From Myxococcales bacterium (lineage in GTDB: Bacteria > Myxococcota_A > Polyangia > Polyangiales > Ga0077539): 64,000 bases of DNA. Position numbers and translations under genes: made by a program. The DNA is taken from NCBI GenBank assembly GCA_030652255.1, contig JAUSAZ010000112.1, positions 69,907 through 133,906 on the forward strand, written 5' to 3'. The notes below the pieces were generated by a model. That model was not told where the DNA came from and made no database searches. It worked only from the letters and a program-made list of their open reading frames with translations. The first letter of the stretch is position 1. The number at the start of each line of letters is the position of its first letter. Below are positions 44 to 28,232 of this stretch, one piece after another.

Positions 44-1759
44 TCAGAACAGCGAGTACCGCTGCGCCAGCGCCACCACCGCCGCGGGCTCGCAGCGCAG
101 CAGCACCCCGTCCGCCCGCACCTCGTAGGTCTCCGGGTCGACCTCGATGCACGGCAGCGCGTCGTTGAGCCGCATGTCCCGCTTGCCGAGACCACGGCAG
201 CCCTTCACCGCCGAGAGGGATTTGCGCAGCCCGAGGCGCGCCGTCGTCCCCTCGCGCAGCGCCCGTTGCGACACGAAGGCCAGGCTCGTCGCCCCCACCG
301 CCCCGCCCATCGCCCCGAACATCGGGCGCATGTACGACGGCTGCGGCGTCGGAATCGACGCCCCGGGGTCGCCCATCTGCCCCCACGCCACGAAGCCGCC
401 CTTCAGCACCAGCTCCGGGCGCACGCCGAAGTACGCCGGCTTCCACAGCACCAGGTCGGCCAGCTTGCCCACCTCCACCGAGCCCACCTCGTGGGCGAAG
501 CCGTGCGCGATCGCCGGGTTGATCGTGTACTTCGCCACGTAGCGCCGCACCCGCGCGTTGTCGTTGTCGCCCGTCTCTCCGGACAGTCGCCCGCGCTGCT
601 CGCGCATCTTGTGGGCCGTCTGCCAGGTGCGGGTGATCACCTCGCCCACCCGCCCCATGGCCTGCGAGTCGCTCGCGATCATGCTGATGGCGCCGAGGTC
701 GTGGAGGATGTCCTCCGCGGCGATGGTCTCCCCCCGGATGCGGCTCTCGGCGAAGGCCACGTCCTCGGGAATGCGCCGGTCGAGGTGGTGACACACCATC
801 AGCATGTCGAGGTGCTCGTCGAGGGTGTTCACCGTGAAGGGCCGCGTCGGGTTGGTCGAGCTCGGCAGCACGTTGGCCTCGCCGCACACCCGCAGGATGT
901 CCGGCGCGTGCCCGCCGCCCGCCCCCTCGGAGTGGTACGTGTGGATGGTGCGCCCGCCGATGGCCGCCAGCGAGTCGTCGACGTAGCCCGACTCGTTGAG
1001 GGTGTCGGTGTGGATGGTCACCTGCACGTCCTCGCCCTCCGCGAAGGCGAGGCAGCAGTCGATGGCCGACGGGGTCGTGCCCCAGTCCTCGTGCAGCTTG
1101 AGCCCGATGGCCCCCGCCCGCACCTGGTCGTCGAGGCCCTCCGGGCGCGAGGTATTACCCTTGCCCGTAAGCCCGATGTTGAGGGGGATGACGTCCGTGG
1201 CCTGGAGCATCAGCCCGAGCTGGTGCGCGCCCGGGGTGCAGGTCGTGGCGTTGGTGCCCGTGACGGGCCCGGTGCCGCCGCCGACGAAGGTGGTCACCCC
1301 GCTCGCGAGGGCCTCGTCGGCCTGCTGCGGACAGATGAAATGGATGTGCGCGTCGACCCCGCCCGCGGTCACGATGCGCCCCTCCGCGGCGAGCGCCTCG
1401 GTGGTCACGCCCACCACCATGCCCGGGGTCACGCCGGCCATCACCGCGGGGTTGCCCGCCTTGCCGATGCCCACGATGCGCCCGCGCTTCACGCCGATGT
1501 CGGCCTTGTAGATGCCCGTCCAGTCGACGATGAGCGCGTTGGTGATCACCAGGTCGAGCGCGTCGTCGTCGCGCACCCCCGCGGCCTGGCCCATGCGGTC
1601 GCGCAGCACCTTGCCGCCGCCGAACTTGCACTCGTCGCCGTAGACCGTCGCGTCGCGCTCCACCTCCACGACGAGCCCGGTGTCGCCGAGGCGCACCCGG
1701 TCGCCCGTCGTCGGGCCGAACATCGCCGCGTAGGCCGACCGCGGGACCCAGACGCTCAC
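44..1759 (-). CDS. ureC: urease alpha (catalytic) subunit
   Basis: 571-aa ORF. The N-terminus [29 protein letters not shown] and the internal [13 protein letters not shown] and MVCHHLD motifs are textbook UreC. The GTG start overlaps the upstream stop as GTGA (1756-1759). Confidence 0.95.
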
Positions 1760-2409
1760 GAGCCCGCCCCCACGCGCACGAGGCCCACCGCGCGGGTCTC
1801 CCCGGGCTCGAAGCGCACGGCCGTGCCCGCGGGGATGTCCAGCCGGGTGCCAAGCCCCGCGGCGCGGTCGAAGGACAACGCCCGGTTGGTCTCGTCGAAG
1901 GGGAAGTGACTCCCCACCTGGATGGGGCGATCGCCCGTGTTGGTGACCTCCAGGGAGAGCGAGGCGCGGCCCGCGTTGAGCTCGATCTCCCCCTCGCGCA
2001 CCAGCAATTCCCCCGGCACCGGCCCGGGCATTTCATCCATCGAAGGCCCCCGCGAGGGAACCGGCAGGAAGCTCCCATACAGCGCCAGGGCCAGGTCGCC
2101 CCGCTCCGCCGCGATGGGCCGATGAACGGTCACCAGCTTGGTCCCATCGGGGAAGGTTCCCTCCACCTGCACCTCGTCCAGCATCGACCCGACGCCCGGC
2201 ATCACGTCCGCGTGGCCCAGCATCTGGCGCCCGAGGTCCATCAGCTCGGCCACCGGGCGACCGTCCCGGATGAACTCCAGCAGCTGCGTCGCCAGCAGCG
2301 CCGTCGCCTCCGGCGCGTTGAGCCTCACCCCCCGCGCGAGCCGCTTCTGCGCGAGGAAACCAGCCGAGTGGAGGAGCAGCTTGTCGAGATCCCGGGGCGT
2401 GAGGTGCAT
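1756..2409 (-). CDS. ureAB: urease gamma-beta fusion subunit (UreA-UreB in one polypeptide)
   Basis: The ATG at 2409 gives [23 protein letters not shown] (UreA/gamma-type N-terminus). The C-terminal half ([17 protein letters not shown]...[20 protein letters not shown]) is UreB/beta-type. The track ORF extends 5 codons further to a GTG at 2424. Confidence 0.9.
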
Positions 2410-3252
2410 CGCTGACGACGGCACCCTAACGCGCCATTGCCGCGCCGCGTTACCAACGTCTTGTAAACGGATCGTCTCCGATGAGCGCCGTCAGGAACCC
2501 CAGGTGACCGCGCAGGGCGCCGAGGGCCCCGGCGGCGGTGGCGGCGGCGACGCGCAGGAGGGTTCCGCCCTCGACGGCGGTGGCCGACTCGATGCGATCG
2601 GCGTGGGCGCCAGGGCCCGCTGCCCCGACGCGCTCGAGCAGGGCCGCGGCGAAGGGGGCGACGCGCTCGCCCACGAGCACGAGGGTGGCGAAGGCGTCGT
2701 AGGCCCCGAGGCGCTCGGCGATGGCGCCGTGGGACTCGTCGAGCAGCAGGCGGTCGGAGAGGGCGAGGCGTCCCTCGCGGCGCACGTCGAGGCGGCTGGC
2801 GTAGCGGGCGAAGGCCCAGCGCTCGCCGCGGGCGACGCGCCCCGCGTGGAGGCCGTCGACCAGGACGAGCGACGCGCCCGGGGCGAGGTCGACCTCGGTG
2901 CGCTGGCCGTAGGTGGCGCCGGCGAAGCACACCACCGGGTCGGGCAGCACCACCGCGAGGGCGCCCTCGTCGAGGCGCAGCGAGAGCGCCTGGCTCGACC
3001 CGCGCACCCCGCGAAAGACCTTGGTGCTGGCCTGCGTGGCGAGCATGAGCGCGGCGCCCGCGGCGACGTGGGCGTCGAGGGAGAGGGCGTCGCCGTCGAC
3101 GAGGCCGCCGCCATACGAGGTGGTGTATGCCCAGAGGGCCTCGCCGCGGTTGTCGGGGAGCAGCAGCCGCAGGGGGCTGTGGGCGCGCGCGCGGGTGGCG
3201 ACGCTCCGGCCGCGCACCCGGGAGACCGCGAGCTCGCCGTGGCCGGTGGGGG

Positions 3253-4515
<1,263 letters not shown>

Positions 4516-8715: not shown

Positions 8716-9795
8716 CTACCCGGGCGGGCACGGCGGCGCGGGCGGCGGCAGGGGCTGGTCCGCCGAGGGGACGTACCCGAGCACGGTGCTCGGCCACTCG
8801 TCGGTGACCAGCAGGAAGCCCTTGTCGTCGAGGCGCACCAGGCCCTCCCAGTTGCGCCCGCGCTCCTCCCGCGCCAGGCGGATCACCCGCCCCGTCGCGC
8901 GGACGGACACCCCATCGTCGCGCAGCTCCAGGAGGCGCTCGACGCTGCGGGCGGCGCCGCCGCGGGGGTCGCAGTCGACGGCCTCGGAGAAGCAGCCCAC
9001 GGCGCGGATGGTGCGCTCGCACTCCGCGGTGTCGCCCACCTCGCGGTAGCTGTACTGCGTCACCCAGAACTGACGGCTGGCGTCGACGGCGCTGGCGTCG
9101 GTGACGCGGTAGGGGATGGCCTCGACGGCGACCGCTCGGGCTTCGCGGCCCTCGACGCGCAGGGCGGTGGAGGCGCAGGAGGTGTTCATCCCGTTGGCCT
9201 CGAAGAGGGCGAGCCAGGCCCCGTCGACGCGGGTGAGCGCCTCGAAGGCGTGGTTGTCGGAGCGCAGCGGCACGTCGAGGGTGAGCGCGTCGCGGTCGAG
9301 CACGAGGCCGCGGGCGGGGTCGAGGCGGGCGGTGACGAGGAGGCCCGACATGCGGTCCTGGTCGCCGCGCTCGACGACGAGGGCCGCGCGGTCGCCGTCG
9401 AAGTCGATGGCCTCGAAGCCCTGGTAGTCGGGGTCGGCGGCGAGGTCGAGGAGGTCGATGGGGACGCGCTCGGGCGTGATGGGCGCGCGGTCGCGGCCGT
9501 CGATCCAGGCGCGAAGGCGAGCGCCGGGGATCCGGTAGAGCCACGGCTGCGTGAAGCCGGGCTGGGCGCGGGCGAGGGCGAGGCCGCGGGGGCTCCACTG
9601 CGGCAGGAGGAAGAGCTCGTCGTTGTGCCACGCGAGGCCGGAGTACTCGTGGCCGCGCGCGGCGGCCTCCCCGGCGAGGCAGATGGGCAGCACCGGGACG
9701 GGGTCGTCGGGGTTGCGGCCGCGCGGGCGCTGCGCCCCGCTGCACGAGAGGGCGAGGAGGCCGACGAGGGGGAGGATGCGGGCGAGGGGGCGCAT
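8716..9795 (-). CDS. lipoprotein, possible phytase-like/YjiK-like beta-propeller
   Basis: The ATG at 9795 gives MRPLARILPLVGLLALSCSG (lipobox). Composition is globular and GC3 is high. The fold assignment is tentative. Confidence 0.6.
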   Translation of the reverse strand: MRPLARILPLVGLLALSCSGAQRPRGRNPDDPVPVLPICLAGEAAARGHEYSGLAWHNDELFLLPQWSPRGLALARAQPGFTQPWLYRIPGARLRAWIDGRDRAPITPERVPIDLLDLAADPDYQGFEAIDFDGDRAALVVERGDQDRMSGLLVTARLDPARGLVLDRDALTLDVPLRSDNHAFEALTRVDGAWLALFEANGMNTSCASTALRVEGREARAVAVEAIPYRVTDASAVDASRQFWVTQYSYREVGDTAECERTIRAVGCFSEAVDCDPRGGAARSVERLLELRDDGVSVRATGRVIRLAREERGRNWEGLVRLDDKGFLLVTDEWPSTVLGYVPSADQPLPPPAPPCPPG

Positions 9796-9827
9796 GGCAG
9801 ATCGTTGGGGCAACGGAGTCTAATCCC

Positions 9828-10112
9828 TCACCCCTCGACCACGCGCGCCACCTCCGCGCGGCACCCGTCGAGCACCGCGCCCAGCACCGCGGCCGCCAGC
9901 TCCTCCGGCACCCCCGCCGCCGCCGCGTGCTCCGCCCACCGCCGCCCGAGCGCGGCCTCGCGCGCGGGGTCGACCGCGCCCACCCCGTGCGCCCGCTTCC
10001 ACTGCGCGACGGCGCGCACCGCCGCCAGCCGCCGGGCCAGCGCGTCCACCAGCGCCGCGTCGGCCGCGTCCACCGCGCGGCGCAGCCCGTCGAGTTCTCC
10101 GTTGGTCGTCAT
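9828..10112 (-). CDS. chorismate mutase, stand-alone AroQ type
   Basis: 94 aa. LDGLRRAVDAADAALVDALARRLAAVRAVAQWK...DPAREAA matches the AroQ (CM_2) helix pattern. Confidence 0.85.
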   Translation of the reverse strand: MTTNGELDGLRRAVDAADAALVDALARRLAAVRAVAQWKRAHGVGAVDPAREAALGRRWAEHAAAAGVPEELAAAVLGAVLDGCRAEVARVVEG

Positions 10113-10176
10113 TGCTCCCTACGGTACCGCCTTCCGCCGGTTGGCCACGCGTCACCGCACGGTGTAGGGAGCGCCC

Positions 10177-12648
10177 ATGAACCGCCCCGAGGTGCTCGCG
10201 CCCGCTGGTGACCCCGACGCCCTGCGCGCCGCCATCCAGGCCGGCGCCGACGCCGTCTACTTCGGCCTCCAGGGCTTCAACGCCCGCGCGCGCGCCACCA
10301 ACTTCGACGCCGCCTCGCTGCGCGACACCATGGACCTCCTCCACGCCCACGGCGTGCGCGGGTACGTCACCCTCAACACCCTCGTCTTCGACGCCGAGCT
10401 CCCCGCCGTCGAGGCCGCCCTCCGCGCCTGCGCCGCCGCCGGCGTCGACGCCGTCATCGTGCAGGACCTCGCCGTCGTCCGCCTCGCCCGCGCCGTCGCC
10501 CCCGGCCTCCCGGTGCACGCCTCCACCCAGATGACCTGCACCGACGCGGGCGCCGTGGAGCTCGCCGCCGAGCTCGGCGCGTCGCGGGTCATCCTCGCCC
10601 GCGAGCTCTCCCTCGACGACATCTCGAAGATCCGCGCCGCCACCGACATACCCATCGAGGTATTCGTGCACGGCGCCCTCTGCGTGGCGTACTCCGGCCA
10701 GTGCCTCACCAGCGAGGCCATCGGCGGCCGCAGCGCCAACCGCGGCGCCTGCGCGCAGGCCTGCCGCCTGCCCTACGCCCTCGTCGTCGACGGCGCCGTG
10801 AAGGACACCGGCGACCGCGCCTTCCTCCTCTCCCCCGAAGACCTCGAGGCCTCGGCCCTCATCCCGCAGCTCTCCGCCCTCGGCGTGGCCTCGGTGAAGA
10901 TCGAAGGGCGCCTCAAGGCCGACACCTACGTCGCCGCCACCGCCGCGCTCTACCGCCGCGCCGTCGACGCCGCCGCGGGCGACGCCGCCCCGCCCGGCGA
11001 GGCCGAGCGCGCGCGGGCGCTCCAGATGTTCACCCGGGGCTCGGGGCCGGGCTTCCTCGCGGGCGTCGACCACCAGCGCCTCGTCGACGGCTCGACCTGC
11101 GACCACCGCGGGCTGCGCGTCGCCACGCTGCGCGCCGTCGAGCGCATGGGCGGCCGCACCTGGCTGCGCCTCGCTCTCGACGCCGACCTCGCCCGCGGCG
11201 ACGGGCTGCTGGTGCAGGGGCGCAGCGGCGGCGATGGGGAGGTGGGCGGCCGCGTGTGGGCCGTCACCGTCGACGGCCGCGACGTCGAGCGCGCCGCGGC
11301 GGGCTGCGAGGCGCGCGCCTGGCTGGGCCCCGAGCGCGACGCGAGCGCGGCCCTGGTCGGCCACGCCGTGTGGCGCACCAGCGCCCCCGCGGAGGAGCGG
11401 GCCGTGCGTGACGCCCTCCAGCACGCCACCGCGGGCGACGTGGTCGACCTGGTGCTGCGCGGCCGCGTCGGCGAGCCCGCCCGCCTGGAGGCCGTCACCC
11501 GCAGCGGGCGGCGCGCGGCGGTCGAGGGCGACGCGCCCATCGAGGCCGGGCGCCACGGCCGCACGCCCGACGACGTGGTGCGCGACAAGCTCGGCCGGCT
11601 CGGCGCGACCACCCTGCGCGCGGGCGAGATCACCAACGCCCTCGGCGACGACGCGATGGTCTCGCCCTCGGCGCTCAACCGACTGCGCCGCGCGCTCGTC
11701 GACGCCCTGGCCGCGTCGGTCACCACCGCGTGGCCCACCACCGACGCCTCGGCCGCGGCCCTGCTCGCCGGGGCCGTCCCGCCCGACCGCGCGCCCGCGC
11801 CGCCGGGGCTCTTCGTGCTGTGCCGCACGCTGCCGCAGGCGCACGCCGCCGTCGACGCCGGCGCCGACGGGGTGTACCTCGACTTCCTGGAGCTCACCGG
11901 CACCGGGCCCGCCGTGCGCGCGCTGCGCGAGCGGGGCGTGCGCCACGTCGCCCTCGCGCCGCCGCGCATCCGCAAGCCCGGCGAGGAGAAGATCGACCGC
12001 TACCTCGCGTCGCTCGCCCCCGACGCGCTGCTCGTGCGCGGCCTCGGCGCGCTGCGCGAGGGCGGCGCCGACGGCATCCTCCGCGTGGGCGACGCGTCGC
12101 TCAACGTCACCAACCGGGTCACCGCGGCGACGGTGCTCGCGCGGGGGCTGTCGTCCTTCACGCCCTCCTTCGACCTCGACGCCGCGCAGGTGATGGCGCT
12201 GCTGGAGTCACCCTTCGGCGCGTGGTCGGAGCTCGTGGTGCACCACCCGATGCCCCTCTTCCACATGGAGCACTGCGTGATCGCCGCCGAGCTCTCGACG
12301 GGTCACACCCACCTCGACTGCGGCCGCCCCTGCGAGCGCCACCGGGTCTCGCTGCGCGACCGCGCGGGCATGGAGCACCCCGTCGAGGCCGACGTCGGGT
12401 GCCGCAACACGGTCTTCCACGCCGCCGCCCAGAGCGCCGCGGGCCTGGTGGGCGGCGCGAAGCGGGCGGGCGTGCGGCGCTACCGCGTGGAGCTCGTGCG
12501 CGAGGCCCCCGAGGACGTCGCCCGCATCGTCGACGCCTACCGCCGGCTCCTCGCCGAACAGAGCACCGCCGCCGAGGTCTGGAACACCCTCAAGGCCGAA
12601 GCCCACTACGGCGTCGTGCGAGGCTCGCTCCGGGTCCTCGCCGACTGA
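10177..12648 (+). CDS. long-form peptidase U32 family protein (RlhA/TrhP/UbiU-type putative Fe-S hydroxylase scaffold)
   Basis: 823 aa. The U32 N-terminus is PEVLAPAGDPDALRAAIQAGADAVYFG...HASTQM. The Cys patch is GALCVAYSGQCLTSEAIGGRSANRGACAQACRLPY. A second TIM-like half (DGVYLDFLEL...) follows. GGGAG lies upstream of the ATG. Confidence 0.9.
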   Translation: MNRPEVLAPAGDPDALRAAIQAGADAVYFGLQGFNARARATNFDAASLRDTMDLLHAHGVRGYVTLNTLVFDAELPAVEAALRACAAAGVDAVIVQDLAVVRLARAVAPGLPVHASTQMTCTDAGAVELAAELGASRVILARELSLDDISKIRAATDIPIEVFVHGALCVAYSGQCLTSEAIGGRSANRGACAQACRLPYALVVDGAVKDTGDRAFLLSPEDLEASALIPQLSALGVASVKIEGRLKADTYVAATAALYRRAVDAAAGDAAPPGEAERARALQMFTRGSGPGFLAGVDHQRLVDGSTCDHRGLRVATLRAVERMGGRTWLRLALDADLARGDGLLVQGRSGGDGEVGGRVWAVTVDGRDVERAAAGCEARAWLGPERDASAALVGHAVWRTSAPAEERAVRDALQHATAGDVVDLVLRGRVGEPARLEAVTRSGRRAAVEGDAPIEAGRHGRTPDDVVRDKLGRLGATTLRAGEITNALGDDAMVSPSALNRLRRALVDALAASVTTAWPTTDASAAALLAGAVPPDRAPAPPGLFVLCRTLPQAHAAVDAGADGVYLDFLELTGTGPAVRALRERGVRHVALAPPRIRKPGEEKIDRYLASLAPDALLVRGLGALREGGADGILRVGDASLNVTNRVTAATVLARGLSSFTPSFDLDAAQVMALLESPFGAWSELVVHHPMPLFHMEHCVIAAELSTGHTHLDCGRPCERHRVSLRDRAGMEHPVEADVGCRNTVFHAAAQSAAGLVGGAKRAGVRRYRVELVREAPEDVARIVDAYRRLLAEQSTAAEVWNTLKAEAHYGVVRGSLRVLAD

Positions 12649-13058
12649 CCCGCGGGCGCCGTCGCGGGCGCACCAGCGGGGGGATTCACGCTCGCGCCCG
12701 CGGCCTGGTCGTAGGGCAGCAGGGTGCGCTGCAGGATCGCGCGGGTCTCCTCGTCGAGCGCCGCGGGCCGCTGCTCGACGCTCTCGCGCGCCAGCGAGAG
12801 CCAGTGCCGCGCCTCGTCGCGCTGCCCGAGCCGCTCGGCGGTCATCCCCCGCACGTAGCGGTAGCGCACCTGCTCGATCGCATCGAGGTGACCGAAGTCC
12901 GACTCGAGGTCTTCGAGGTTGGTGAGCGCCGACTCGTACCGCGCCGCCCGGTAGTGGGCGTCCGCGCGATCGAGCTGGTCGCGGTAGTTCTGGCAGGCCG
13001 CCAGCGATGCCAGCAGGCCCGTCACGATCAAGGCACGTCCCGTCCGCACGGCGCGCAC
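12606..13058 (-). CDS. small lipoprotein with a TPR-like helical region
   Basis: The lipobox is in RALIVTGLLASLAAC. Candidate starts are GTG 13049, GTG 13058 and ATG 13127. GC3 is high. The 3' end overlaps the convergent U32 gene by 43 nt. Confidence 0.55.
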   Translation of the reverse strand: MRAVRTGRALIVTGLLASLAACQNYRDQLDRADAHYRAARYESALTNLEDLESDFGHLDAIEQVRYRYVRGMTAERLGQRDEARHWLSLARESVEQRPAALDEETRAILQRTLLPYDQAAGASVNPPAGAPATAPAGQSARTRSEPRTTP

Positions 13059-13212
13059 CCTATCACGGTCCCCGGCGAGCACGGGCACCGTGCCGACTGG
13101 CCAACGGTCCTCCCACCGGCGCGACATGGATGTCAGAGCCATCGCCCGCGGACCTCCCACCCGCCCCTTGGATTTCCGTCGTATCCCCGACGGAAGGCGC
13201 GTCGCCACCCCA

Positions 13213-18095: not shown

Positions 18096-21000
18096 TCAGT
18101 ACGACGCGGACTGCACCTGGAAGTTGATGCCGAGCCCTTCGCGCAGGGAGAAGTACGTCTCGCTCATCGAGAACTGCACCACGTCCTTGAGCTTCTCGGC
18201 GGGCGCGAGGTCGCCGGGGAGGCCCGGCTCCAGGGCGAGCATCTTGCGGGCGATCTCCAGGTCGCCGCACATCAGGAAGCCCGCCCGGGCCGCCGTGAGC
18301 TCGACGGACTGGTACCACTTCTTGATGTTCGAGGCGCCGCCCTGCTCGAGGAAGTAGCGCACCACCTTGCGCAGGCCCTCGACCGCGATGGGGTCGGTGG
18401 CGAGCAGCGGCGCGAGGGTCTGCGCGGCCTGCGCCGACTCCGCCGGGACGTCCTGGTCGGACTTCACCAGCTTGATCGCCGCGAGCAGCATCACCGTGAG
18501 CTCCTGCGTGGTGGGCAGCAGCACGCGGATGTAGTGCTCGTTGCGGTAGTAGGTCATGTGCTTGGCCGCCACGAAGGCGAGCTCCTCCGGGCGCAGGCCC
18601 GAGAGCAGCCCGGCGCCCGCGAAGGACGCGATGGGCTCGCTCGGCACGTACCCGAGGCCGCCCTGCTGCTGCGGCTTCAGGAAGATCGACGGCAGCGGCA
18701 GGTTGAGGGCCTGCGACGACTGCGCGAGCGAGCGCACCAGGGCGACGGTGGTGTTCGCCGGGTCCTGAAGCTCCTTCTGGGTGAAGCCGAACTGCTGGAG
18801 CGGCTTCACCTTGGCGCGGCGCACCGCCCCGAGGATGGACGCGAAGATCTTGCCCACCACCGGGTCTTCGTTGGGGTGGAAGAGCTGCTTGACCCAGTGC
18901 TCCTCGGTGAGCCGGCCGGTCGGCGCGAGGGGCTTGCGCGGGCGGTACTGCTCGAAGAACGCGCGGAGGTCTTCGCGGGCCCGGTCGCGGAGCAGGAAGG
19001 CCGTGGTCGCCGCCACGCACCACGCCTTGTCGTGCTGGTGCGACTGGTAATACAGGTCGTAGATCGCGTGCAGGGCCTCGGAGTTGCCCATGTCCTGCGC
19101 GGCGATGGTCTGCCAGCGCGCGATGGACTCGGGGATGTCCCCGACGCGCATCGCCAGCTCGGCGACGATCTTGTGCTCCGTGAGGTCGTCGGGCTTGCGC
19201 TCGGACGCCAGCTTGAACACCGCGAGCGCCTTGTCGTTCTCGTTGAGCCGGTCGCGGTAGATGAGCCCGAGCGGGTGCAGCAGGCTGAACTCCAGGTCGC
19301 GGCTGTCGGGCTTGCCCGCGACGCGCTCGATCATGCGCTTGTAGGCGCGCGAGAGGCTGCGCCAGTCGCGCCGCGCCTGCAGGATCTCGTTGACCTTCGC
19401 GAAGGGCTTGAGCTCCGACGGGTTGAAGTCGAGCGCCTGGTTGTAGAACGTCAGCGCCTCGTCGGGGTTCTTCAGCTCCTGGTTGTAGATCGACGCGATG
19501 GAGTACGCGTAGCGCGCCTTGCGCTCGGCGTTGGTCTCCAGGTCGCTGATGCGCTGCACCACCTCGATGACCTTCGACCACTGCTTGGCCTCGGTGTAGA
19601 GCCCGAGCAGCTTGTGCAGCAGCACGTGGTCGCGGGGCTTGAGCTCCGCCGCGCCCGCGAAGGCCTGGATGGCCTTCTGGGTGTTCTTGGCCTTGTCCTG
19701 CCAGAGGCCGCCGATCTCCTGGAGCATCGCGAAGCGCTTCTCCTCGTCGTCCTCCATGTCGAGCAGCTGCGTGCGGTACCCGATCGCCTGCTCCCACTCC
19801 GCGCCCGCGGAGTGCGTGTCGATGAGCGCCCCGAGCGCCGGGCGGTACCCGGGGTACTCCTCCAGCGACTTCTCCAGGAAGTTCGCCGCGCGCCGGCGGT
19901 CGCCCTGCGCGGACTTCACCACGCCGAGCCGGTAGTACAGGTCGGCCCGCGCCTCGGCGTCGAGCTCGTCCTTGTGGTGCACGAGCAGCACCTGATAGTG
20001 CTTGAACGCGTTGTCCCAGTCCTGCTTCTCGAAGTAGGCGAGCGCCAGCGCGGAGATGGACTCCACGTTGGCCCGGTCGAGCGCCTGCGCCGCCGTGAAG
20101 GCCTTGATGGCGCGGTCGCCCTTGCCGAGCGCCACCGCGACGCGGCCCATCGTGAGCTGGATCTGGAGCTGCTCCGCCGGGTCGCGCCGCGACGCGCGGC
20201 GGGTGAGCATCTCCGCGAGGGGCTCAGCGTCGGCCCAGCGCTGCTCGGCGACGTAGAAGTTGCACAGCGGCCAGGCGGCCTCCTCCTGGTCGGGGTCGCA
20301 GCGCAGCGCCTCCTCGTAGCAGCTGATCGACTGCGCCTGGTCGTCGAGGTGCTGCGCGTTCACGCGGCCGAGCTCGGTGAGGAGCTTCGCGCGGGTGCGC
20401 GGCAGCTCCGTCGCGGCCTGCTCGCGGTCGAGGTAGCGGGCCACCTCGTACCAGTCCTCGCGGCGCGTCGCGATGGCGCGCAGGGCCTCGAGGGCGGGCA
20501 GGTGCGCGGGGTCGAGGTCGAGCGCGGCCTGGTACTGGTCCACCGCGCGGAGCTCGTCGCCCAGCGAGGTCTCGGCGATCTTGCCGACGCGCACCCGCAG
20601 CTCGACGGCCTTGGCCGTGTCGCCGGCCACGAACTGCGCGAGCTGCTCGAGCATGTCCGTGGCGCGGTGCCAGTCGTTGCGCGACTCGTAGATGCGCGCC
20701 AGCGCGTCGAGCGCGTCGACGTTCTCCGCGTCGATCTGGAGCACGTTCAGGAAGGCGTCCTCCGCGTGCTCGAGGTCGCGCTTCTCGTCGGCGTACACCC
20801 GGCCCATCTGGAGGAAGACGGGCACCCGGTCGCGGCGCTCGCCGGTCGCCGTGAGGTGGCGCTCCAGCGTGGCGATGAGCTCGTTCCACTGCCCGGTCTG
20901 GCGGTAGAGGCGCTCCAGGGCGCGCAGCGAGGGGTCGTGCGAGGGGTCGATCTCCAGCACGCGCTCGAAGCGCTCGATGGCCAGCGCGGGCCGGACGAAC

Positions 21001-24000
21001 TCCTCCTCCAGCATCGCGCCGATGCGGGTGAGCAGCTTGATGCGCTCGCGCTCCGTCGACACCACCTCGAGCTGCTGCTCCAGCACCCCGAGCAGCTCCT
21101 GGCTGCGCCCGAGCCGGGCGTAGATGCCCTCCAGGCCGCGCATGGCGGCGAGGTTCACCGGGTCGGCCTCGAGCACCGCGGCGTACTCCGCGGCGGCGCC
21201 CTCGAGGTCGCCGGTGCGGTCTTCGAGCACCGAGCCCACGCGCATGCGCAGCTCGGCGGCCTCCGCGGGGTCGGCCACGGAGGCCACGTGGCGGCGCAGC
21301 ACGTCGACCAGCGCGGGCCAGTCCTCCGCCGCGGCGTGCACCCGGGCGAGCGCCGCGAGCGCCGCGCCGTCCGTCGCGTCGATGGCCAGCGCCGCGTGGA
21401 ACTGCTCCACCGCCTGCTGCGGCTGCTTCAGGCTCTTCTCGTAGACCTCGCCCAGCTGCACGTGGGCGGTGCGACGGTCCTCCGGCGAGCGCGCGACCTC
21501 CACGGCCCGCTGGAGGGTCTTGGCGAGGGGCTGCCACTGCCCCAGGCGCCGGTAGAGCTCACCCTGCGAGCGCAGCGCCTGGAGGTTGCCCGGCTCCGCC
21601 GCCAGGATCTGCGTGTAGATCGGGATCGCCCACTCGGGGTGCCCCAGCTCCAGGCCGTACCACTTCGCGGCGTGCAGCCCGAGCTGCGTCTTGCGCGCCC
21701 CCGCGGGCTCCGCCGTGTAGGCCTCCATGGTCGTCTTGAGCAGCTCGTTCCACTTGCTACTGGCGCCGGTGATGGCCTCGAGCGCCGCGATCGCCTCGGG
21801 GTTGGTGACGTCCTCCTCGAAGGCGATCTGCGCCGCCGCAAAGGCCTGCTCCCGGTCGCCCAGCTCGGTGTCGAACACCTTCGCCGCGCGCACCATGAAG
21901 GGCACCGCCTCGGCGACGTTGCCGTCCTCCGCGAGCTTGTCGTGCCGCGCCACGTAGAGCCCCGAGAGCTCGTCCCAGCGCGCCGCCTCGCGGTGCAGCG
22001 ACTCCAGCGCCGTGAAGGCCCGCCCGTGCAGGGCGTCGACCTCCAGCACCGCCTCGTACGAGGCCCGCGCCCCGTCGGGCTCGCCGATGCGCTGCTCCCA
22101 GACGTCCGCCGCCTGGAGGTGCAGCGCGACCTTCGTCTCCGCGTCGTCGGCGCCCGCGGCCTGCCGCCCGAGCACGTCCACCACCTCGCGCCACTCCTCG
22201 CGCGCCGTGTGGATCACCAGCAGCGCGGCGAGCGAGGTGGCGTCCGCGGGGTCGACCTCGAGCGCGTTGCGCCACGCGTCGACGGACTCGTCCCCCTGGC
22301 CCAGCACGGTCCAGTAGATGGTCCCGAGCTCCGACCACGCGGCCTTGATCTCGTCGTTCTCCAGCGTCGCGGTGCCGAGCGCGATGAGCGTCTGCAGCGT
22401 GACCACCAGCTCGTCCCAGCGCTGCCCCTGGCGGTAGATCGCCGCCAGCGCCCGCAGCGCCTCGAAGGACGCCGACTCGATGTCGAGCACGCGCCGGTAG
22501 CCCTCGATGGCCCGCTCGACGTCGCCCAGCTTCTCCAGGTAGACCGCCGCCACGCGCAGCGCGATCTCCACGCGCCGGTCGGAGTCGGCCTCGCTCCCGA
22601 GCTGGCGCTCGAGCACGTCGATGAGGTCCTGCCAGCGGCCTGCGGCCTCGTGCAGCGCGGCGATGGCGCTGAGCGTCTCGGCCTCCTCGCCGCGGATCAC
22701 CAGCACCTGCTCGTAGAGCTTCACCGCGTCGTCGGGGCGCCCGAGGTAGTCCTGGGCGATGCTCGCCATGCGGGTGTAGGTCTCCGCGCGCTCCTCGTCG
22801 GAGTCCGCCGCGTCGAGCTTGCGCTCCTGCACGGCGTAGAGCTCGGGCCAGCGCTCCTGCGAGGCGTAGATGGCCTCCAGGGCGTCGAGGCTGGGCCGGT
22901 TGCGCGCGTCGATGGTCTCGACCACCGCGCGGTACTGCACCACGGCGTCGTCCACGCGGCCGAGGTCGTCGCGCAGCAGGCCCGCGAGGCGCAGCGTGTG
23001 GCCGACCTTCTCCTCCGGGTCCTCGGTGATCTGCGCGCGGCGCGAGAGCACCGTCACCAGCTTCTCCGCCTCGCCCGAGGCCGTGTGCAGCCGGTCGAGG
23101 GACTCCAGCGCGTCGGGGTCGAGCGGCGCCACGTCCAGCACGAACTGGTACGCGCCCTCCGCCGAGGGCAGGTCGCTCCGCTCCTCCTCGTGCACCCGCG
23201 CCAGGCGCTTGCCGATCACCACCCGCACGTCGTCCGTGGTGCTCTCCGCCTCGACCACGTCGGCGTAGACGTTGGTGAGGTCGTCCCACGCGCCGGTCGC
23301 CGCCGCGAGGCGCTCGACCTCGGTGAGCGAGCGGTCGTCGAGGGGAGCCTCCTTCACCGCGCGGCCGAGCCACTCGAAGGCCCCCACGGCGTCGGCGCGC
23401 TTCTCCTCCAGGATCTCCGCGATGCCCCGCATCGCCAGCACCCGGTCGCCCGCCTCGGGGATGAGGTCGAGCGTGCGGGCCTGGAGGTCGGCCAGCTTCT
23501 CCCAGTCCTCGTACATCCGGTAGAGCGGGTCGAGCGCCGCCGCGACCTCGGCGCGCAGCACGCCACGCGCGAACATAGCCTCCAGCGCGGCGACGGTCTC
23601 CGCGTGGTCGGCCTGCACGTCGATGATCTCGCGGTACACCGCGAGCGCCCCCGCGGGGTCGCCCAGCCGGTGCTCCAGCACCTGCCCGAGCCGGTAGCGC
23701 AGCGACACGGCGTCGTCGGGCGAGAGGTCGGACAGCGTGAGCTCGCGGCGCAGCACCTCGGCCACCTGGGGCCACTGCTCCAGGGCCTCGTAGAGCCGGT
23801 CGAGGGCCCGCAGCGCGCTCGCGTTGCCGGCGTCGACCTCCAGCACCGCGCGGTAGCGGCTGATGGCGGCGTCGGCGTCGGCGCGCTGCACCTCGTGGAT
23901 CTGGCCCACGCGCAGCAGCAGCTCGACGTGCCGGTAGGGGTCGTCGGCGAGGGACGCGACGGCGCCGTCGTACACGGCGACCACCGTGTCCCAGCGAGAG

Positions 24001-27000
24001 AGACCCTCCGCGAGGCGCTCGAAGTTGCCGAGGTTCTCCTCGACGCGCGGGTCGAGCGCCACCGCGCGGGCCATCGCGTCGAAGGCGGCCTCCGGGCGGT
24101 CGAGCGCCGACTCGTTGACGTCCGCGATGCGCTGGAGCAGCTCCAGCTTGCGGGGCACGTCGTCGGTGTGGCGCACCTCGACCTCCAGCACCTCGACGAG
24201 CGGCTCGTAGGCGCCCGAGGCGGAGAACACCGGCTCCAGCACCGCCGCCGCCGCGAGGGGCGCGCGGTCGCCGCGGAGGATGGCCGTGAGCGCGCCCACC
24301 GAGGGCGCGTGATCGGGGATGGTCTCGACGATCTCGCGGTAGATCTCGACGGCGCGCGGCACGTCGGCGAGGTTGCCCTCGTGCAGCTTCGCCACGCGGA
24401 AGCGGTACGACGCGACCTCGTCCGGGTCGGCCGCGAGCTCGGCCTCGCGCTCGAGCACCGAGAGCAGGTCCTGCCAGCGGCCCTGGGCCGTGTAGAGCGC
24501 GTCGAGCTTCTGGATCGCCAGCAGGTCCGTCGGGTCGAGCTCGAGGACGTGGTTGTACGCGTCGATGGCGCGGTCGTTGTCGTGGAGCTCGCTCTCGTAC
24601 ACGGCCGCGACCTCGAAGAAGAGCCGCTTCTTCTCGTCGGCGTCGCTGATGAGCGCGGCCTTCTTCTCGTAGGCCGCGAGCAGCTCGGGCCAGCGCTGGC
24701 CGGTCACGAAGATGCGGATGAGGGCGTCGAGCGCGGCGACCTCGCTGTCGTCGACCTCGACGATGCGGGCGTAGGTGCGCACCGCCCCATCGACGTCGTT
24801 GAGCACCGTCTCGTAGATCTCCGCCGCGCGCCACAGGTACGACTTGCGCTCGTCGAGGTCGTCGAGGATCTCGGCCTTGCGCACCAGGGTCTCGGTGAGC
24901 TCCTTCGGCCGGTCGGTGAGCTGGTAGAGCCGCTCCAGGGACGACACCGCGTCGAGGTTGCCGGGCTGCACCGCGAGCGCCGCGACCTCGTGCCCGATGG
25001 CCCGGTCGAGGTCCCGCAGCCGCTCCTCGGACACCGCGGAAGCACGGCGGTGCAGGGCGACCCGCACCTCCACGTCGTCTCCGCCCTCACCCAGCGCCGC
25101 GATGCGCGCCTCGATGACCTCCACGAAGGCCCGGTCGATCTCCAGCGAGCGCGCCAGCCGGTCGAGCCCATTGAGGGTGTCCTCCCGCGACGGGTCCTCC
25201 GTCAGCGCCTGCGTCAGCGCGCCGAAGGCCCCGGCACCGTCGTCGAGCGCCGTCTCCCGCAGCTCCGCTACCCGGTGCAGCAGATCGACCTTCGTCGCCC
25301 GCTCGGAGAGCCCCGCCTGCACGTCCAGGGCATGCACCAGCCGCTCCCACGCGCCGCTCGCGCGGTACACCGGCTCCAGCGTGTCGACCACCGTCGCGGT
25401 GTACGTCGCGTCGCCGAGCATCGCCTCGAGCGCCGCCGCCGCCCGCTCCGACGACTCCTCGCGGGTCACCACCTCGCGCAGGATCTCGATCGCCGCCTCG
25501 CGGTTGCCCAGCCGCTGGTCCTGCACCTCCGCCAGGCGGAACTGCAGCGCCGCGCGGCCCTCTCCCTCCGCCGCGAGCGACACCTGCTGCGCGAGGTTGT
25601 CCGCCAGCTCGGTCCACTTGCCCAGCCGGGTAAACATCCGGTCGAGCGCGGCCAGCGCGAGGGCGTTGGTCGGGTCGCGCTCCAGCATCGCGTGGTACGT
25701 CGCCACGCTCGCGTCGGCGTCGCCGAGGCGCTCGTCCTGCACCGCGGCGATCTCCGCCTGCACCCGGTCGTACTCCTCCGGGTCGGCGGTGACCTCCAGC
25801 CGGCGACGGAGCGTGGCGAGCACCTCGGGCCACCGCCCCGCGGAGCGCCAGGTGCGCTCCAGCGCCTCGAGCACCGCGACGTCGCCCGGGTTCGACGCGA
25901 GCACCCGCTCGAGCGCCGTCACCGCGTTCTGCACGTTGCCGAGGAAGCGCCCCTCGATCTCCGCGACGCGCACGTAGAGGTCGCGCCCGAGGGTCGTGCC
26001 CGCGTGCTGCTCCGCCGCCTCGCGCAGGAGCACCACCACCTGCGGCCAGCCGTCGACGGCCTCGGACACCCGCATGAGCGTCTCGGTCACCTCGGCGTTC
26101 GACGGGTCCTCCTGAAAGGCCCGCCCGTACGCCTCCAGCGCCCGCGGCGCCTGGCCCAGCTCCGTCGCGCACACCGCGCCGATGCGCTGCAGCAGCGCCA
26201 CGCGCTCGGCCTTGTCGTCGCCCTCCGCCACGAGGATTTCGAGCGCGCGCACCAGGGCCTCCCAGTCGCCGCGCAGCTCGTACACCGGCTGCAGCACCTC
26301 CGCCGCCGCGTGCCGCAGCGACGGGTCGCGCAGGAGCCCTTCGAGGGCCTGCCGCGCGCCGTCGTGCTCGGGCGCGCTCGCCAGCACCGAGCGGTACAGC
26401 TCCAGCGCCTCGGCGGCCTGACCCAGCCGCTGCTGCGTCACCGTCGCCAGGTGGAAGCGGATCGCCGTCCCCTTCGCGTCGTCGCCGAGCGCGTCGTGCA
26501 CGTCGAGCTCGCGGCGCAGCGCCTCCGCCAGCTGCGGCCACTGCTCCTGCTTCTCGTAGAGCCGCGCCAGCGCCGCGAGCGCCTCGGGGTCGTCACCGAA
26601 CTCCGCCACGATGGCCGTCGCGGCCTCGACCGCGCGGGGGAGGTTCTGCAGCCGCTCCTCGGCGACGTGCACCACGTCGAGGAGCAGGGCCTTGCGGGTC
26701 TCCCCGTCGCCCACGATCTCCAGGCGCCGGTCGAGCACGTTGAGCAGCTCGGCCCACTGCCCGTGCGCGCGCAGCATCGACTCCAGCGCCGCGAGCGCCT
26801 CGGGGTGCGCCTCGTCGCCCGCGAGCACCGCCCGGTACTGCGCCACCGCGCCGTCGACGTCGTCGAGGTGCGCCGCGAGGATGGACCCCGCCCGCAGCCG
26901 CAGCGTCACCCGCGCGGCGTCGCCCACGGTCGCGTCGGCGATGGCGCTGTCGAGGGCGTTCTGCGCCTCGCGCCACCGGCCGGTGAGGGCCGCCGCGCGC

Positions 27001-28232
27001 TCCAGGTCGACCACCGAGCGCGGCTCCGACGGGGCCTGCGCCAGCGCGTCGCGGAAGCGCTCGAAGGCCAGCGCCCCCTCGCCGAGCGCGGCCTCGTAGA
27101 GCTCGCCCAGCCTGCGCAGGGTGTCCACCTGCTCGGCCCCGTGCGCGTCGCCGAGGCGCTTCACCTCGAGGGCCGTCGCGAGGCGCTTCGCGTCGTTGGC
27201 CGCGGTGTACATCGGCACCAGCCGCAGCGCCGCGTCGCGGTTGGCGGGGTCGATCTCCAGCACCTTCTCCAGGTAGCGCGCCGCGCGGTCGACCTTCTCC
27301 TTCCGCACCTCCCAGAGCTGCGCGACCTTCCCGAAGAGCGACACCTTCGTGGCGTCGTCCGCGGCGGGGTTCTCCGCCTCGCGCTCGAGCAGCCGGATGA
27401 GCTCGTCCCACTTCCCGCTCTCGGCGTAGAAGGTCTCCAGCTCGTCCCACGCGTGCATCGCGAGGTAGCGCTTCTTCAGGGCCTCCTGCGCGCGCCGGTC
27501 GTTGGGGTCGAGCGCCATGACGCCGCGCCACGCCTCGACGGCGATGACGTCGTCGTTGAGCCGGTCGCCCGCGATGAGCCCGAGCTTCACCAGCAGCTGG
27601 ATGCGCTGCGGCACGTCGGCGGTCATCGCGGCCTGCGAGCGCAGCACCTCGGCGAGCTTCGCGTAGTCCTTGGACTTCTCGTAGAAGCCCGCGAGCTGCG
27701 TGAGGGCCTCCGGGTGCCCCGGGTCGCGCGCGAGGACCTCCTCCCACATCTCCGTGCAGACCTCCGGGCGCTTGACCTTCTCGGTCACGAAGCGCGCGAG
27801 GCCGAGGTACTGGTCGAGCTGCTGCGACGCGGGCGCGGCGGCCACCTCGCGGCGCAGGATGCGCAGGAGCTTGTCCCAGTCCTTGCGCTTCTCGTACATC
27901 GACTTGAGGTAGTCGATGGCGCGCGCGTTCTCCGCGTCGACGTCCAGGATCTGCTCGTTGGCCTTGATGGCCTCGGCCTGGTTGGAGAAGCGCTCCAGGT
28001 AGATGCCCGCGATGCGCTCGAGCACGGCTACGCGCTCGTACTTGTCGTCGAGCAGCTCGACCTTCGCCTGGAGGGTCTTGATGAGGTCCTGCCAGCGCTT
28101 CTGGCCCTCGAACTTCGCGGCGGCCTCGTCGAGCTCGCGCAGGCGCTCGGGGTCCGGCGGGGGACGCAGCGTCGCGGGCCCTTCGATTGCGCTCGAACCG
28201 TCGATGCCCTGGATGTCGTCGGAGTTGCTCAT
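18096..28232 (-). CDS. giant TPR-repeat protein (3378 aa), GltI/AgmK-like, with a non-TPR C-terminal domain
   Basis: One uninterrupted high-GC3 frame. It carries dozens of ~38-40-aa units of the type RWxELxxxLER.L...D..E...LL.RIA.I.E..L.D...AI.AY..VLE.DP.N..AL.AL.RLY. The last ~309 aa are not TPR-like. The antisense 3524-aa ORF is low-complexity shadow sequence. Confidence 0.9.
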   Translation of the reverse strand: MSNSDDIQGIDGSSAIEGPATLRPPPDPERLRELDEAAAKFEGQKRWQDLIKTLQAKVELLDDKYERVAVLERIAGIYLERFSNQAEAIKANEQILDVDAENARAIDYLKSMYEKRKDWDKLLRILRREVAAAPASQQLDQYLGLARFVTEKVKRPEVCTEMWEEVLARDPGHPEALTQLAGFYEKSKDYAKLAEVLRSQAAMTADVPQRIQLLVKLGLIAGDRLNDDVIAVEAWRGVMALDPNDRRAQEALKKRYLAMHAWDELETFYAESGKWDELIRLLEREAENPAADDATKVSLFGKVAQLWEVRKEKVDRAARYLEKVLEIDPANRDAALRLVPMYTAANDAKRLATALEVKRLGDAHGAEQVDTLRRLGELYEAALGEGALAFERFRDALAQAPSEPRSVVDLERAAALTGRWREAQNALDSAIADATVGDAARVTLRLRAGSILAAHLDDVDGAVAQYRAVLAGDEAHPEALAALESMLRAHGQWAELLNVLDRRLEIVGDGETRKALLLDVVHVAEERLQNLPRAVEAATAIVAEFGDDPEALAALARLYEKQEQWPQLAEALRRELDVHDALGDDAKGTAIRFHLATVTQQRLGQAAEALELYRSVLASAPEHDGARQALEGLLRDPSLRHAAAEVLQPVYELRGDWEALVRALEILVAEGDDKAERVALLQRIGAVCATELGQAPRALEAYGRAFQEDPSNAEVTETLMRVSEAVDGWPQVVVLLREAAEQHAGTTLGRDLYVRVAEIEGRFLGNVQNAVTALERVLASNPGDVAVLEALERTWRSAGRWPEVLATLRRRLEVTADPEEYDRVQAEIAAVQDERLGDADASVATYHAMLERDPTNALALAALDRMFTRLGKWTELADNLAQQVSLAAEGEGRAALQFRLAEVQDQRLGNREAAIEILREVVTREESSERAAAALEAMLGDATYTATVVDTLEPVYRASGAWERLVHALDVQAGLSERATKVDLLHRVAELRETALDDGAGAFGALTQALTEDPSREDTLNGLDRLARSLEIDRAFVEVIEARIAALGEGGDDVEVRVALHRRASAVSEERLRDLDRAIGHEVAALAVQPGNLDAVSSLERLYQLTDRPKELTETLVRKAEILDDLDERKSYLWRAAEIYETVLNDVDGAVRTYARIVEVDDSEVAALDALIRIFVTGQRWPELLAAYEKKAALISDADEKKRLFFEVAAVYESELHDNDRAIDAYNHVLELDPTDLLAIQKLDALYTAQGRWQDLLSVLEREAELAADPDEVASYRFRVAKLHEGNLADVPRAVEIYREIVETIPDHAPSVGALTAILRGDRAPLAAAAVLEPVFSASGAYEPLVEVLEVEVRHTDDVPRKLELLQRIADVNESALDRPEAAFDAMARAVALDPRVEENLGNFERLAEGLSRWDTVVAVYDGAVASLADDPYRHVELLLRVGQIHEVQRADADAAISRYRAVLEVDAGNASALRALDRLYEALEQWPQVAEVLRRELTLSDLSPDDAVSLRYRLGQVLEHRLGDPAGALAVYREIIDVQADHAETVAALEAMFARGVLRAEVAAALDPLYRMYEDWEKLADLQARTLDLIPEAGDRVLAMRGIAEILEEKRADAVGAFEWLGRAVKEAPLDDRSLTEVERLAAATGAWDDLTNVYADVVEAESTTDDVRVVIGKRLARVHEEERSDLPSAEGAYQFVLDVAPLDPDALESLDRLHTASGEAEKLVTVLSRRAQITEDPEEKVGHTLRLAGLLRDDLGRVDDAVVQYRAVVETIDARNRPSLDALEAIYASQERWPELYAVQERKLDAADSDEERAETYTRMASIAQDYLGRPDDAVKLYEQVLVIRGEEAETLSAIAALHEAAGRWQDLIDVLERQLGSEADSDRRVEIALRVAAVYLEKLGDVERAIEGYRRVLDIESASFEALRALAAIYRQGQRWDELVVTLQTLIALGTATLENDEIKAAWSELGTIYWTVLGQGDESVDAWRNALEVDPADATSLAALLVIHTAREEWREVVDVLGRQAAGADDAETKVALHLQAADVWEQRIGEPDGARASYEAVLEVDALHGRAFTALESLHREAARWDELSGLYVARHDKLAEDGNVAEAVPFMVRAAKVFDTELGDREQAFAAAQIAFEEDVTNPEAIAALEAITGASSKWNELLKTTMEAYTAEPAGARKTQLGLHAAKWYGLELGHPEWAIPIYTQILAAEPGNLQALRSQGELYRRLGQWQPLAKTLQRAVEVARSPEDRRTAHVQLGEVYEKSLKQPQQAVEQFHAALAIDATDGAALAALARVHAAAEDWPALVDVLRRHVASVADPAEAAELRMRVGSVLEDRTGDLEGAAAEYAAVLEADPVNLAAMRGLEGIYARLGRSQELLGVLEQQLEVVSTERERIKLLTRIGAMLEEEFVRPALAIERFERVLEIDPSHDPSLRALERLYRQTGQWNELIATLERHLTATGERRDRVPVFLQMGRVYADEKRDLEHAEDAFLNVLQIDAENVDALDALARIYESRNDWHRATDMLEQLAQFVAGDTAKAVELRVRVGKIAETSLGDELRAVDQYQAALDLDPAHLPALEALRAIATRREDWYEVARYLDREQAATELPRTRAKLLTELGRVNAQHLDDQAQSISCYEEALRCDPDQEEAAWPLCNFYVAEQRWADAEPLAEMLTRRASRRDPAEQLQIQLTMGRVAVALGKGDRAIKAFTAAQALDRANVESISALALAYFEKQDWDNAFKHYQVLLVHHKDELDAEARADLYYRLGVVKSAQGDRRRAANFLEKSLEEYPGYRPALGALIDTHSAGAEWEQAIGYRTQLLDMEDDEEKRFAMLQEIGGLWQDKAKNTQKAIQAFAGAAELKPRDHVLLHKLLGLYTEAKQWSKVIEVVQRISDLETNAERKARYAYSIASIYNQELKNPDEALTFYNQALDFNPSELKPFAKVNEILQARRDWRSLSRAYKRMIERVAGKPDSRDLEFSLLHPLGLIYRDRLNENDKALAVFKLASERKPDDLTEHKIVAELAMRVGDIPESIARWQTIAAQDMGNSEALHAIYDLYYQSHQHDKAWCVAATTAFLLRDRAREDLRAFFEQYRPRKPLAPTGRLTEEHWVKQLFHPNEDPVVGKIFASILGAVRRAKVKPLQQFGFTQKELQDPANTTVALVRSLAQSSQALNLPLPSIFLKPQQQGGLGYVPSEPIASFAGAGLLSGLRPEELAFVAAKHMTYYRNEHYIRVLLPTTQELTVMLLAAIKLVKSDQDVPAESAQAAQTLAPLLATDPIAVEGLRKVVRYFLEQGGASNIKKWYQSVELTAARAGFLMCGDLEIARKMLALEPGLPGDLAPAEKLKDVVQFSMSETYFSLREGLGINFQVQSASY

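Follow-up and report, generated by a model that had tools for sequence, protein, structure and literature searches.

A chorismate mutase gene linked to a long-form rlhA in Polyangia: a probable prephenate supplier for rRNA hydroxylation

Why should the gene for a very small chorismate mutase (CM) stand back to back with that for a large protein of the U32 family? The two occupy positions 9828 to 12648 of a stretch of 64,000 nucleotides from contig JAUSAZ010000112.1 (the window, meaning the whole of this stretch), which is very rich in guanine and cytosine (GC) and belongs to a soil myxobacterium of the order Polyangiales. A preliminary description of the locus had tied the mutase to a prephenate-dependent U32 hydroxylase. 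Gene neighbourhoods, conserved in several orientations, now give good support to a functional coupling of the two genes through prephenate supply, although the pairing is missing from about 70% of the Polyangia loci. The account considered probable is that the U32 protein is a long-form RlhA for prephenate-dependent rRNA hydroxylation and that the linked CM supplies its prephenate.

In E. coli, RlhA is needed for O2-independent formation of 5-hydroxycytidine at position 2501 of 23S rRNA (ho5C2501), in a process dependent on both prephenate and Fe-S (PMC5727448). Prephenate is also needed by TrhP and UbiU/V (PMC5727448, PMC6599085, PMC10990095) and has been shown by isotope labelling to be the oxygen donor for anaerobic ubiquinone (PMC10990095). 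The chemistry proposed for U32 proteins is oxidation of the substrate via Fe-S clusters, coupled to prephenate decarboxylation and hydroxide release (PMC10990095).

The two gene products

The open reading frames (ORFs), their strands and the gap between them, as first described, are confirmed by the ORF listing and by Pfam. Both ORFs carry the coding signature of real genes in a high-GC genome (GC of 0.98 at third codon positions versus about 0.55 at second positions), and both start codons are backed by homologue alignments. Moreover, an identical protein of 823 amino acids (aa) with the same 94-aa CM_2 neighbour has been called independently on two Logan metagenome assemblies. The closest relatives of the U32 protein are from Polyangiales and Polyangiaceae (Myxococcota). 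The features of the pair are as follows.

9828-10112, minus strand: stand-alone AroQ-class CM, 94 aa (Pfam CM_2)
10113-10176, no strand: divergent intergenic region, the 64-bp gap between the CM and U32 ORFs
10177-12648, plus strand: long-form RlhA-type U32 protein, 823 aa (Peptidase_U32, DUF3656 and second U32)
10177-11076, plus strand: N-terminal U32 barrel (RlhA1 motif), residues 1-300 (Pfam residues 76-297; alternating beta/alpha in the AlphaFold2 (AF2) model)
10681-10764, plus strand: first Cys cluster, C169-x6-C176-x15-C192-x3-C196, with E161 before it (sequence; E. coli RlhA numbering)
11113-11718, plus strand: beta-rich middle region including DUF3656, residues ~313-514 (Pfam DUF3656 residues 398-514; AF2)
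11806-12591, plus strand: C-terminal second U32-like barrel (RlhA2-type), residues ~544-805 (Pfam, 23.1 bits when scanned alone; BLAST; AF2)
12274-12402, plus strand: second Cys cluster, C700-x14-C715-x3-C719-x22-C742 (sequence; alignment of homologues)

The larger protein contains Peptidase_U32 (PF01136, 276 bits) followed by DUF3656 (PF12392, 45.8 bits), and its C-terminal 293 aa (531-823), scanned alone, give a second, weak Peptidase_U32 match just above the cut-off of 22.4 bits. BLAST also pairs the C-terminal region with the U32 domain of E. coli RlhA as an internal match (E = 0.01), and the precomputed Pfam records of relatives show the order U32, DUF3656, U32. U32 and DUF3656 occur in one polypeptide only in the RlhA subfamily, and approximately half of RlhA1 proteins have a second U32 motif at the C-terminus (RlhA2a/b), delta-proteobacteria being among the carriers (Kimura 2017, PMC5727448). 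The window protein has the same domain order as these long forms. Its extra C-terminal half, to which the preliminary description could assign no role, is therefore a second U32 module of an already described kind, because it matches the RlhA1 + RlhA2 architecture.

BLASTP alignment with E. coli RlhA (YdcP) extends over 578 aa at 33% identity (E = 3e-62), spanning U32 and DUF3656. Besides these domains, the two proteins share E161 and four cysteines (169, 176, 192 and 196) at the same positions, and a C-terminal Cys cluster. The first cluster had been given earlier as C-x10-C-x15-C-x3-C, in which the first gap is wrong and should be x6. E. coli RlhA has further cysteines at C572, C580, C611 and C614; C611 and C614 lie in the segment DC-RPCEMH, which aligns with DCGRPCERH (713-721) and so with C715/C719, and this is the only segment of the C-terminal cluster that aligns, C580 having no clear counterpart. 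E161 and all eight cysteines of both clusters are invariant in 48 homologues. In the E. coli enzyme C169, C176, C580 and C611 are essential, and an E161A mutant retains no more than a trace of ho5C2501 (PMC5727448). E. coli RlhA has 653 aa and ends in a short Cys-rich tail, where the window protein has a full second U32-like barrel.

In an AF2 model of the 823-aa protein (predicted local distance difference test 81, predicted TM-score 0.83), a beta/alpha barrel at the N-terminus is followed by a beta-rich middle (~313-490) and then by a second beta/alpha domain (~544-800), which is barrel-like. Low confidence is confined to the Cys loops, as is expected because the cofactor is absent from the model. 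Searching PDB sequences with phmmer found nothing, and a Foldseek search of the PDB with the model returned no solved U32 relative, only generic TIM barrels and translation-factor-like beta-barrels, so no structural assignment past domain type is made. The translation-factor matches (EF-Tu, EF-G, IF2 and SelB) had a probability of ~1 with low TM-scores. In the model they probably map to the beta-rich middle region, and they are weakly compatible with a ribosome- or RNA-contacting module.

The substrate, which the preliminary description had left open among rRNA, tRNA and quinone, can be predicted from these features. The 823-aa protein is predicted to be a member of the long-form RlhA subfamily acting on 23S rRNA C2501, because it combines U32, DUF3656 and a second U32 with E161, C169 and C176 in RlhA numbering. 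It is a new member of a known family. Placement against the E. coli paralogues agrees, with RlhA the best-scoring in phmmer searches with the N-terminal domain (RlhA 199 bits, TrhP 180, UbiU 136, UbiV 16). The margin over TrhP is modest, and this leaves some room for the view that the long U32 protein hydroxylates another target (tRNA U34, for instance, or a quinone, or a further rRNA site reached via the extra U32 domain), with CM still supplying prephenate. The top NCBIfam models, all sub-threshold, are those of TrhP and UbiU, with no RlhA model among the matches, and the function of the RlhA2 domain is without experimental test in the literature (PMC5727448). Nevertheless, a different target is quite improbable. 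DUF3656 reportedly occurs in no subfamily other than RlhA (PMC5727448), and the alignment with E. coli RlhA runs through it; the equivalog cut-offs are missed by a wide margin (TrhP 215 versus 534 bits, UbiU 183 versus 440, UbiV 60 versus 275); and no ubiquinone or tRNA-modification gene is found among the window's flanking genes with a Pfam match.

That the protein is a collagenase-type peptidase is what the family name and the database labels imply ('putative protease', 'U32 family peptidase', and 'Collagenase' in the Pfam description of DUF3656). This is extremely unlikely, since the collagenases PrtC and HP0169 belong to other U32 subfamilies (PMC5727448), the Fe-S Cys motifs are conserved, and linkage to CM and to 3-deoxy-D-arabino-heptulosonate 7-phosphate (DAHP) synthase would make no sense for a protease. 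In addition, no signal peptide is evident by eye, the protein beginning MNRPEVLAPAGD and running straight into the conserved domain. Assignments as peptidase, UbiU/V or TrhP were all rejected on domain architecture and equivalog scores.

For the 94-aa ORF the Pfam CM_2 score is 56.6 bits, against a cut-off of 27, and PF01817 is also found on the Logan gene call. Six residues (R11, R28, K39, D48, R51 and E52) are invariant in 17 rlhA-linked CMs and align with the CM domains of E. coli PheA and TyrA; we take them to be the core catalytic set of the E. coli chorismate mutase (EcCM). The window CM thus shares the CM_2 fold signature and the six-residue set with the PheA/TyrA domains, but it is neither fused to nor clustered with prephenate dehydratase (PDT) or prephenate dehydrogenase (PDH). 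Unlike E. coli, where prephenate is made solely via the bifunctional PheA and TyrA, the window has a stand-alone CM. The helix 3 equivalents of EcCM S84 and Q88 appear not to be conserved, being C84 and E87 in the clade of the window and varied in the other linked CMs, with an uncertain alignment at this short helix end.

The apparent lack of conservation at the Q88 equivalent has some bearing on whether the small protein is mainly a mutase at all, as it might instead bind prephenate or chorismate as an accessory subunit of RlhA, or be an enzyme of the isochorismate-pyruvate-lyase type. No NCBIfam CM equivalog cut-off is reached (the best score is 43.5 bits, and all are far below cut-off), 'CM-like' and isochorismate lyase models score alike, and the stop/start overlaps seen in same-strand pairs elsewhere suggest stoichiometric co-production. 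Invariance of the six core residues and the CM_2 score well above cut-off make a mainly non-mutase function very unlikely, and among the genes flanking the pair in the window neither an isochorismate synthase nor a siderophore gene was found.

Small stand-alone AroQ mutases are known, for example Rv0948c of M. tuberculosis, and work in complex with class-II DAHP synthase. The window CM is likewise small (~90 aa) and stand-alone. In contrast to the Rv0948c type, its partner gene encodes an RNA-hydroxylase homologue and not an aromatic-pathway enzyme, although some sister loci have a class-II DAHP synthase beside rlhA in place of CM.

Recurrence of the linkage

A scan of GTDB species genomes gave 80 loci with relatives of the U32 protein at 58-90% identity, annotated as Polyangia-type myxobacteria except for one metagenome-assembled genome labelled Pseudomonadota. 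Up to 6 kb was read on each side of rlhA, and 72 of the loci could be assessed on both sides. CMs were detected with an iterated CM profile over all six-frame ORFs. Early searches gave spurious alternative-frame matches (Ala/Arg-rich, at high GC), and matches were kept only when they spanned the greater part of the profile and were located outside the U32 ORF; three CMs in odd arrangements were confirmed by Pfam CM_2 at 55-62 bits, all above cut-off.

CM immediately adjoins rlhA in 16 of the 72 loci, comprising 13 divergent upstream, one upstream on the same strand (L033) and two downstream on the same strand (L050, L068), and it lies 1-2.5 kb away in two more (L060, L052). Carriers of the pair include Polyangium fumosum DSM 14668 (NZ_SSMQ01), Polyangium sp. 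6x1 and the metagenome-assembled genomes SCUS01 and JBGARZ01. By rough estimate, assuming 1-2 CM genes per ~9,000 genes, chance would give ~0.02 CM-adjacent loci per 72. Clustering of flanking genes shows CM to be the commonest neighbour family, with every other family in fewer than 10 loci. The genes beyond the CM-rlhA pair vary between clades, giving at least 10 distinct flanking contexts, and in a simple neighbour-joining tree of the U32 proteins, without support values, the linked loci are spread over ~10 clades, including the basal L075/L060 pair. Homologues of PheA-PDT, TyrA-PDH and AroF were found in none of the 80 loci. The correlation between CM and U32 identity, with a high Pearson coefficient and a weak Spearman coefficient once close pairs are removed, is not used as evidence of co-inheritance.

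Three further loci, from related Polyangiaceae and without CM, have a class-II DAHP synthase directly upstream of rlhA on the same strand.

L011:2376-4853, plus strand: class-II DAHP synthase (Pfam DAHP_synth_2, 615 bits)
L023:3340-5979, plus strand: class-II DAHP synthase (same match)
L077:1896-3278, plus strand: class-II DAHP synthase (same match)

Class-II DAHP synthase catalyses the first step of the shikimate pathway, and its place beside rlhA links prephenate supply to this gene in a second way. Counting both kinds of linkage, 21 of the 72 loci carry a gene for shikimate or prephenate supply at rlhA.

The reverse question is where relatives of the linked CM sit. A profile of the 17 linked CMs, searched against 5.8 billion proteins with a word-indexed search, retrieved 87 proteins, all stand-alone and of 80-144 aa, with no fusions. 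Genomic context was read for 11 of the 87, and seven of these adjoin a long rlhA (P0190, P0188, P0170, P0183, P0186, P0167 and P0191), each scoring 72 bits or more. The arrangement is divergent in two of them; in the other five, CM follows rlhA on the same strand, typically with stop and start codons overlapping as GTGA. The lower-scoring relatives were without a U32 link, one of their contigs being too short to judge; a CM from Longimicrobiaceae (P0196) is in a DAHP synthase-CM-prephenate dehydrogenase operon and another is beside a LysR regulator. From the contexts read, the linked CM subfamily occurs almost only beside long rlhA.

Two of the long RlhA proteins met in this search (L091:1340-4261 and L097:2-2817; 885 aa, GC 74-77%) reach only ~44% identity with any member of the Polyangia set of 80, so the CM-rlhA linkage reaches a clearly more distant lineage. 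In both, CM is immediately downstream of rlhA, with a 3-nt gap in L091 and a stop/start overlap in L097. In a crude CM tree the same-strand downstream CMs separate from the divergent-upstream ones, which is compatible with more than one recruitment of CM to rlhA.

In one of the seven loci, on a metagenome contig (L086:1637-3971, plus strand), rlhA is in pieces, with gene calls of 351 aa and 206 aa, and a 124-aa CM comes after them. It was considered as a system of short U32 plus CM and rejected, as it is a frameshifted long rlhA, the frameshifts being either an assembly error or a mark of a pseudogene. Another of the lower-scoring relatives, a small stand-alone CM of the alphaproteobacterium Halocynthiibacter namhaensis (L101:3656-3952, JWIF01000063.1), is in an ffh-(acetyltransferase)-CM-rpsP-rimM-trmD-rplS operon; its neighbours serve the translation apparatus and tRNA modification, and it too might be connected with prephenate-dependent modification of RNA.

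The pairing is thus conserved, but patchy and lineage-restricted. As far as full-text searching found, a long RlhA with a linked prephenate-supply gene is undescribed in the literature; linkage to CM or DAHP synthase was not reported for the long forms of Kimura 2017, and the neighbours of E. coli rlhA are sutR and yncJ, not CM.

Prephenate supply as the proposed role of the pair

The long RlhA would be built like a fused pair of U32 subunits, resembling UbiU-UbiV. The N-terminal barrel has a four-Cys site, probably for 4Fe-4S, the beta-rich DUF3656 part in the middle probably contacts a 50S precursor, and the second, divergent U32-like barrel would have its own four-Cys site. The UbiU-UbiV and TrhP1-TrhP2 systems also have two U32 modules each, those of UbiU and UbiV each with a four-Cys 4Fe-4S site, and their chemistry is prephenate-dependent and O2-independent (PMC10990095, PMC6599085), so that the long RlhA resembles a covalent version of such a pair. 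They differ from it in being separate polypeptides without DUF3656, in their substrates (ubiquinone precursors and tRNA U34) and in their operon partners, which are UbiT or TrmR and not CM.

The 94-aa CM would turn chorismate into prephenate, which would serve the RlhA-class enzyme as organic oxygen donor or co-substrate, and the long RlhA would use its two Fe-S sites to hydroxylate C2501 of 23S rRNA in 50S precursors. CM may be co-regulated or translationally coupled with rlhA. With both proteins made together through the gene linkage, rRNA hydroxylation could proceed independently of prephenate leaking from the feedback-regulated Phe/Tyr pathway. A plausible selective reason is that prephenate of that pathway might drop when aromatic amino acids are abundant, as in protein-degrading myxobacteria, and the hydroxylase could then still be supplied by a small CM free of regulation, or by an additional DAHP synthase. 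From the genes and their neighbourhoods we infer the rRNA target, the CM activity, the delivery of prephenate and the status of CM as an extra and not a housekeeping copy.

Several observations weigh against this account. The pairing is absent from ~70% of the Polyangia loci, including those of Sorangium, Minicystis and Labilithrix. Outgroup loci were taken from E. coli and from mislabelled chromosomes in PLSDB, the latter giving eight rlhA-like loci (Paenibacillus, with a long form; the Clostridia Vescimonas, Subdoligranulum and Acetoanaerobium; the Bacteroidota Parabacteroides and Persicobacter; Collinsella; and Fusobacterium) with no CM, PDT, PDH or DAHP synthase within 6 kb. The linkage is therefore absent in all nine outgroup taxa, so that adjacency of CM and U32 genes, counted across genomes, recurs in Polyangia and is not found in the outgroups. 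CM pairing is consequently dispensable for RlhA function in general, and the linkage is a lineage-specific variant and not a general property of rlhA. The catalytic efficiency of CM is uncertain because the S84/Q88 equivalents appear not to be conserved. Moreover, no long-form RlhA has been experimentally shown to make ho5C2501, and direct hydroxylase activity has not yet been reconstituted in vitro for any U32 protein (PMC10990095). Finally, the organism may have no CM besides this one, 64 kb of the genome having been read.

The last point bears on the possibility that CM is a housekeeping Phe/Tyr enzyme that happens to stand beside rlhA, the linkage having little or no meaning beyond a common metabolite pool. 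The predominance of Polyangia rlhA loci without CM is in its favour, as is the return by the linked-CM profile of solely stand-alone CMs, with no PheA- or TyrA-type fusions from these lineages. A housekeeping role is nevertheless unlikely, given that the two genes are repeatedly adjacent, in three orientations, at least 10 flanking contexts and also the lineage with 44% identity, far above the chance estimate, and that PDT and PDH are never nearby, unlike in the aro operon of Longimicrobiaceae. In addition, Sorangium, Minicystis and Labilithrix yielded no match to the linked-CM profile in the word-indexed search, though their RlhA proteins are in the same database, suggesting that those genomes use another type of CM.

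By analogy with the Rv0948c type, the small CM could also be a physical partner that docks on the long RlhA and hands prephenate straight to the Fe-S active site. This is a tentative and rather doubtful extension, which would fit the GTGA stop/start overlaps and the repeated retention of the pair irrespective of orientation. If true, the pair would be a self-contained 'chorismate-to-hydroxyl' module and a natural minimal system for U32 reconstitution in vitro.

For prephenate supply to RlhA as such, the significance of the linkage is confirmatory and not surprising for specialists, while adding independent evidence and practical handles for biochemistry. The idea of prephenate as an organic oxygen donor is recent and has so far rested on E. 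coli genetics and isotope labelling (PMC10990095). That rlhA in a distant phylum is repeatedly linked with CM, and in some loci with DAHP synthase, provides independent evolutionary evidence that prephenate is a direct and limiting co-substrate of RlhA-type enzymes. It also provides candidate two-gene modules, some apparently translationally coupled, for co-expression in reconstitution experiments, and predicts the presence of ho5C2501 in Polyangia. Furthermore, it suggests that some bacteria insulate RNA hydroxylation from the feedback control of aromatic amino acids, a regulatory idea that can be tested.

The intergenic region and surrounding genes

The 64-bp divergent region (10113-10176) and the adjoining coding ends have a mean column identity of 77% in five close relatives. 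Conserved blocks CTACGSTACC, TTGGCC and GGTGTAG are present in the divergent region of the window and of L002, L003, L005 and L007, and Shine-Dalgarno-like GGGAG motifs can be read ahead of the CM and U32 start codons. A scan of 9600-12900 for a sigma-70 consensus promoter and for terminators found neither. A promoter with a near-leaderless transcript would be consistent with the TTGGCC...TGTAG spacing and the closeness of the rlhA ATG.

The observation in the preliminary description that no other aromatic amino acid genes are nearby holds as far as tested. Within the 64-kb window, phmmer searches that used E. coli PheA, TyrA and AroF, plus a class-II DAHP synthase, as queries gave no second aromatic-pathway gene, and the CM profile gave no second CM. 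Pfam matches on the genes flanking the pair are to DUF2804, SH3_3, amine oxidase, UreD, TPR and an NtrC-type regulator.

Downstream of rlhA and convergent with it is a TPR-like ORF, probably a lipoprotein (12606-13208, minus strand), the longest reading of which overlaps the rlhA 3' end by 43 bp; an independent gene call of this ORF gives 178 aa with the same overlap (L102:3430-3966). A urease gene cluster is present at 44-3322 on the minus strand, with UreD identified by Pfam (2450-3322), and the ORFs at 44-1759 and 1756-2424 resemble UreC and a fused UreA/UreB by sequence. On the plus strand, 1312-1606 matches the Rfam model 5_ureB_sRNA (64 bits against a cut-off of 40) and lies opposite the 5' part of the urease alpha-subunit-like ORF (44-1759, minus strand); the most likely cause is that the urease coding sequence is conserved, and not a genuine antisense small RNA. 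Further along the window, 18096-28232 on the minus strand is a single ORF of 3,378 aa (GC of 0.99 at third codon positions), with no catalytic domain detected and full of TPR-type repeats.

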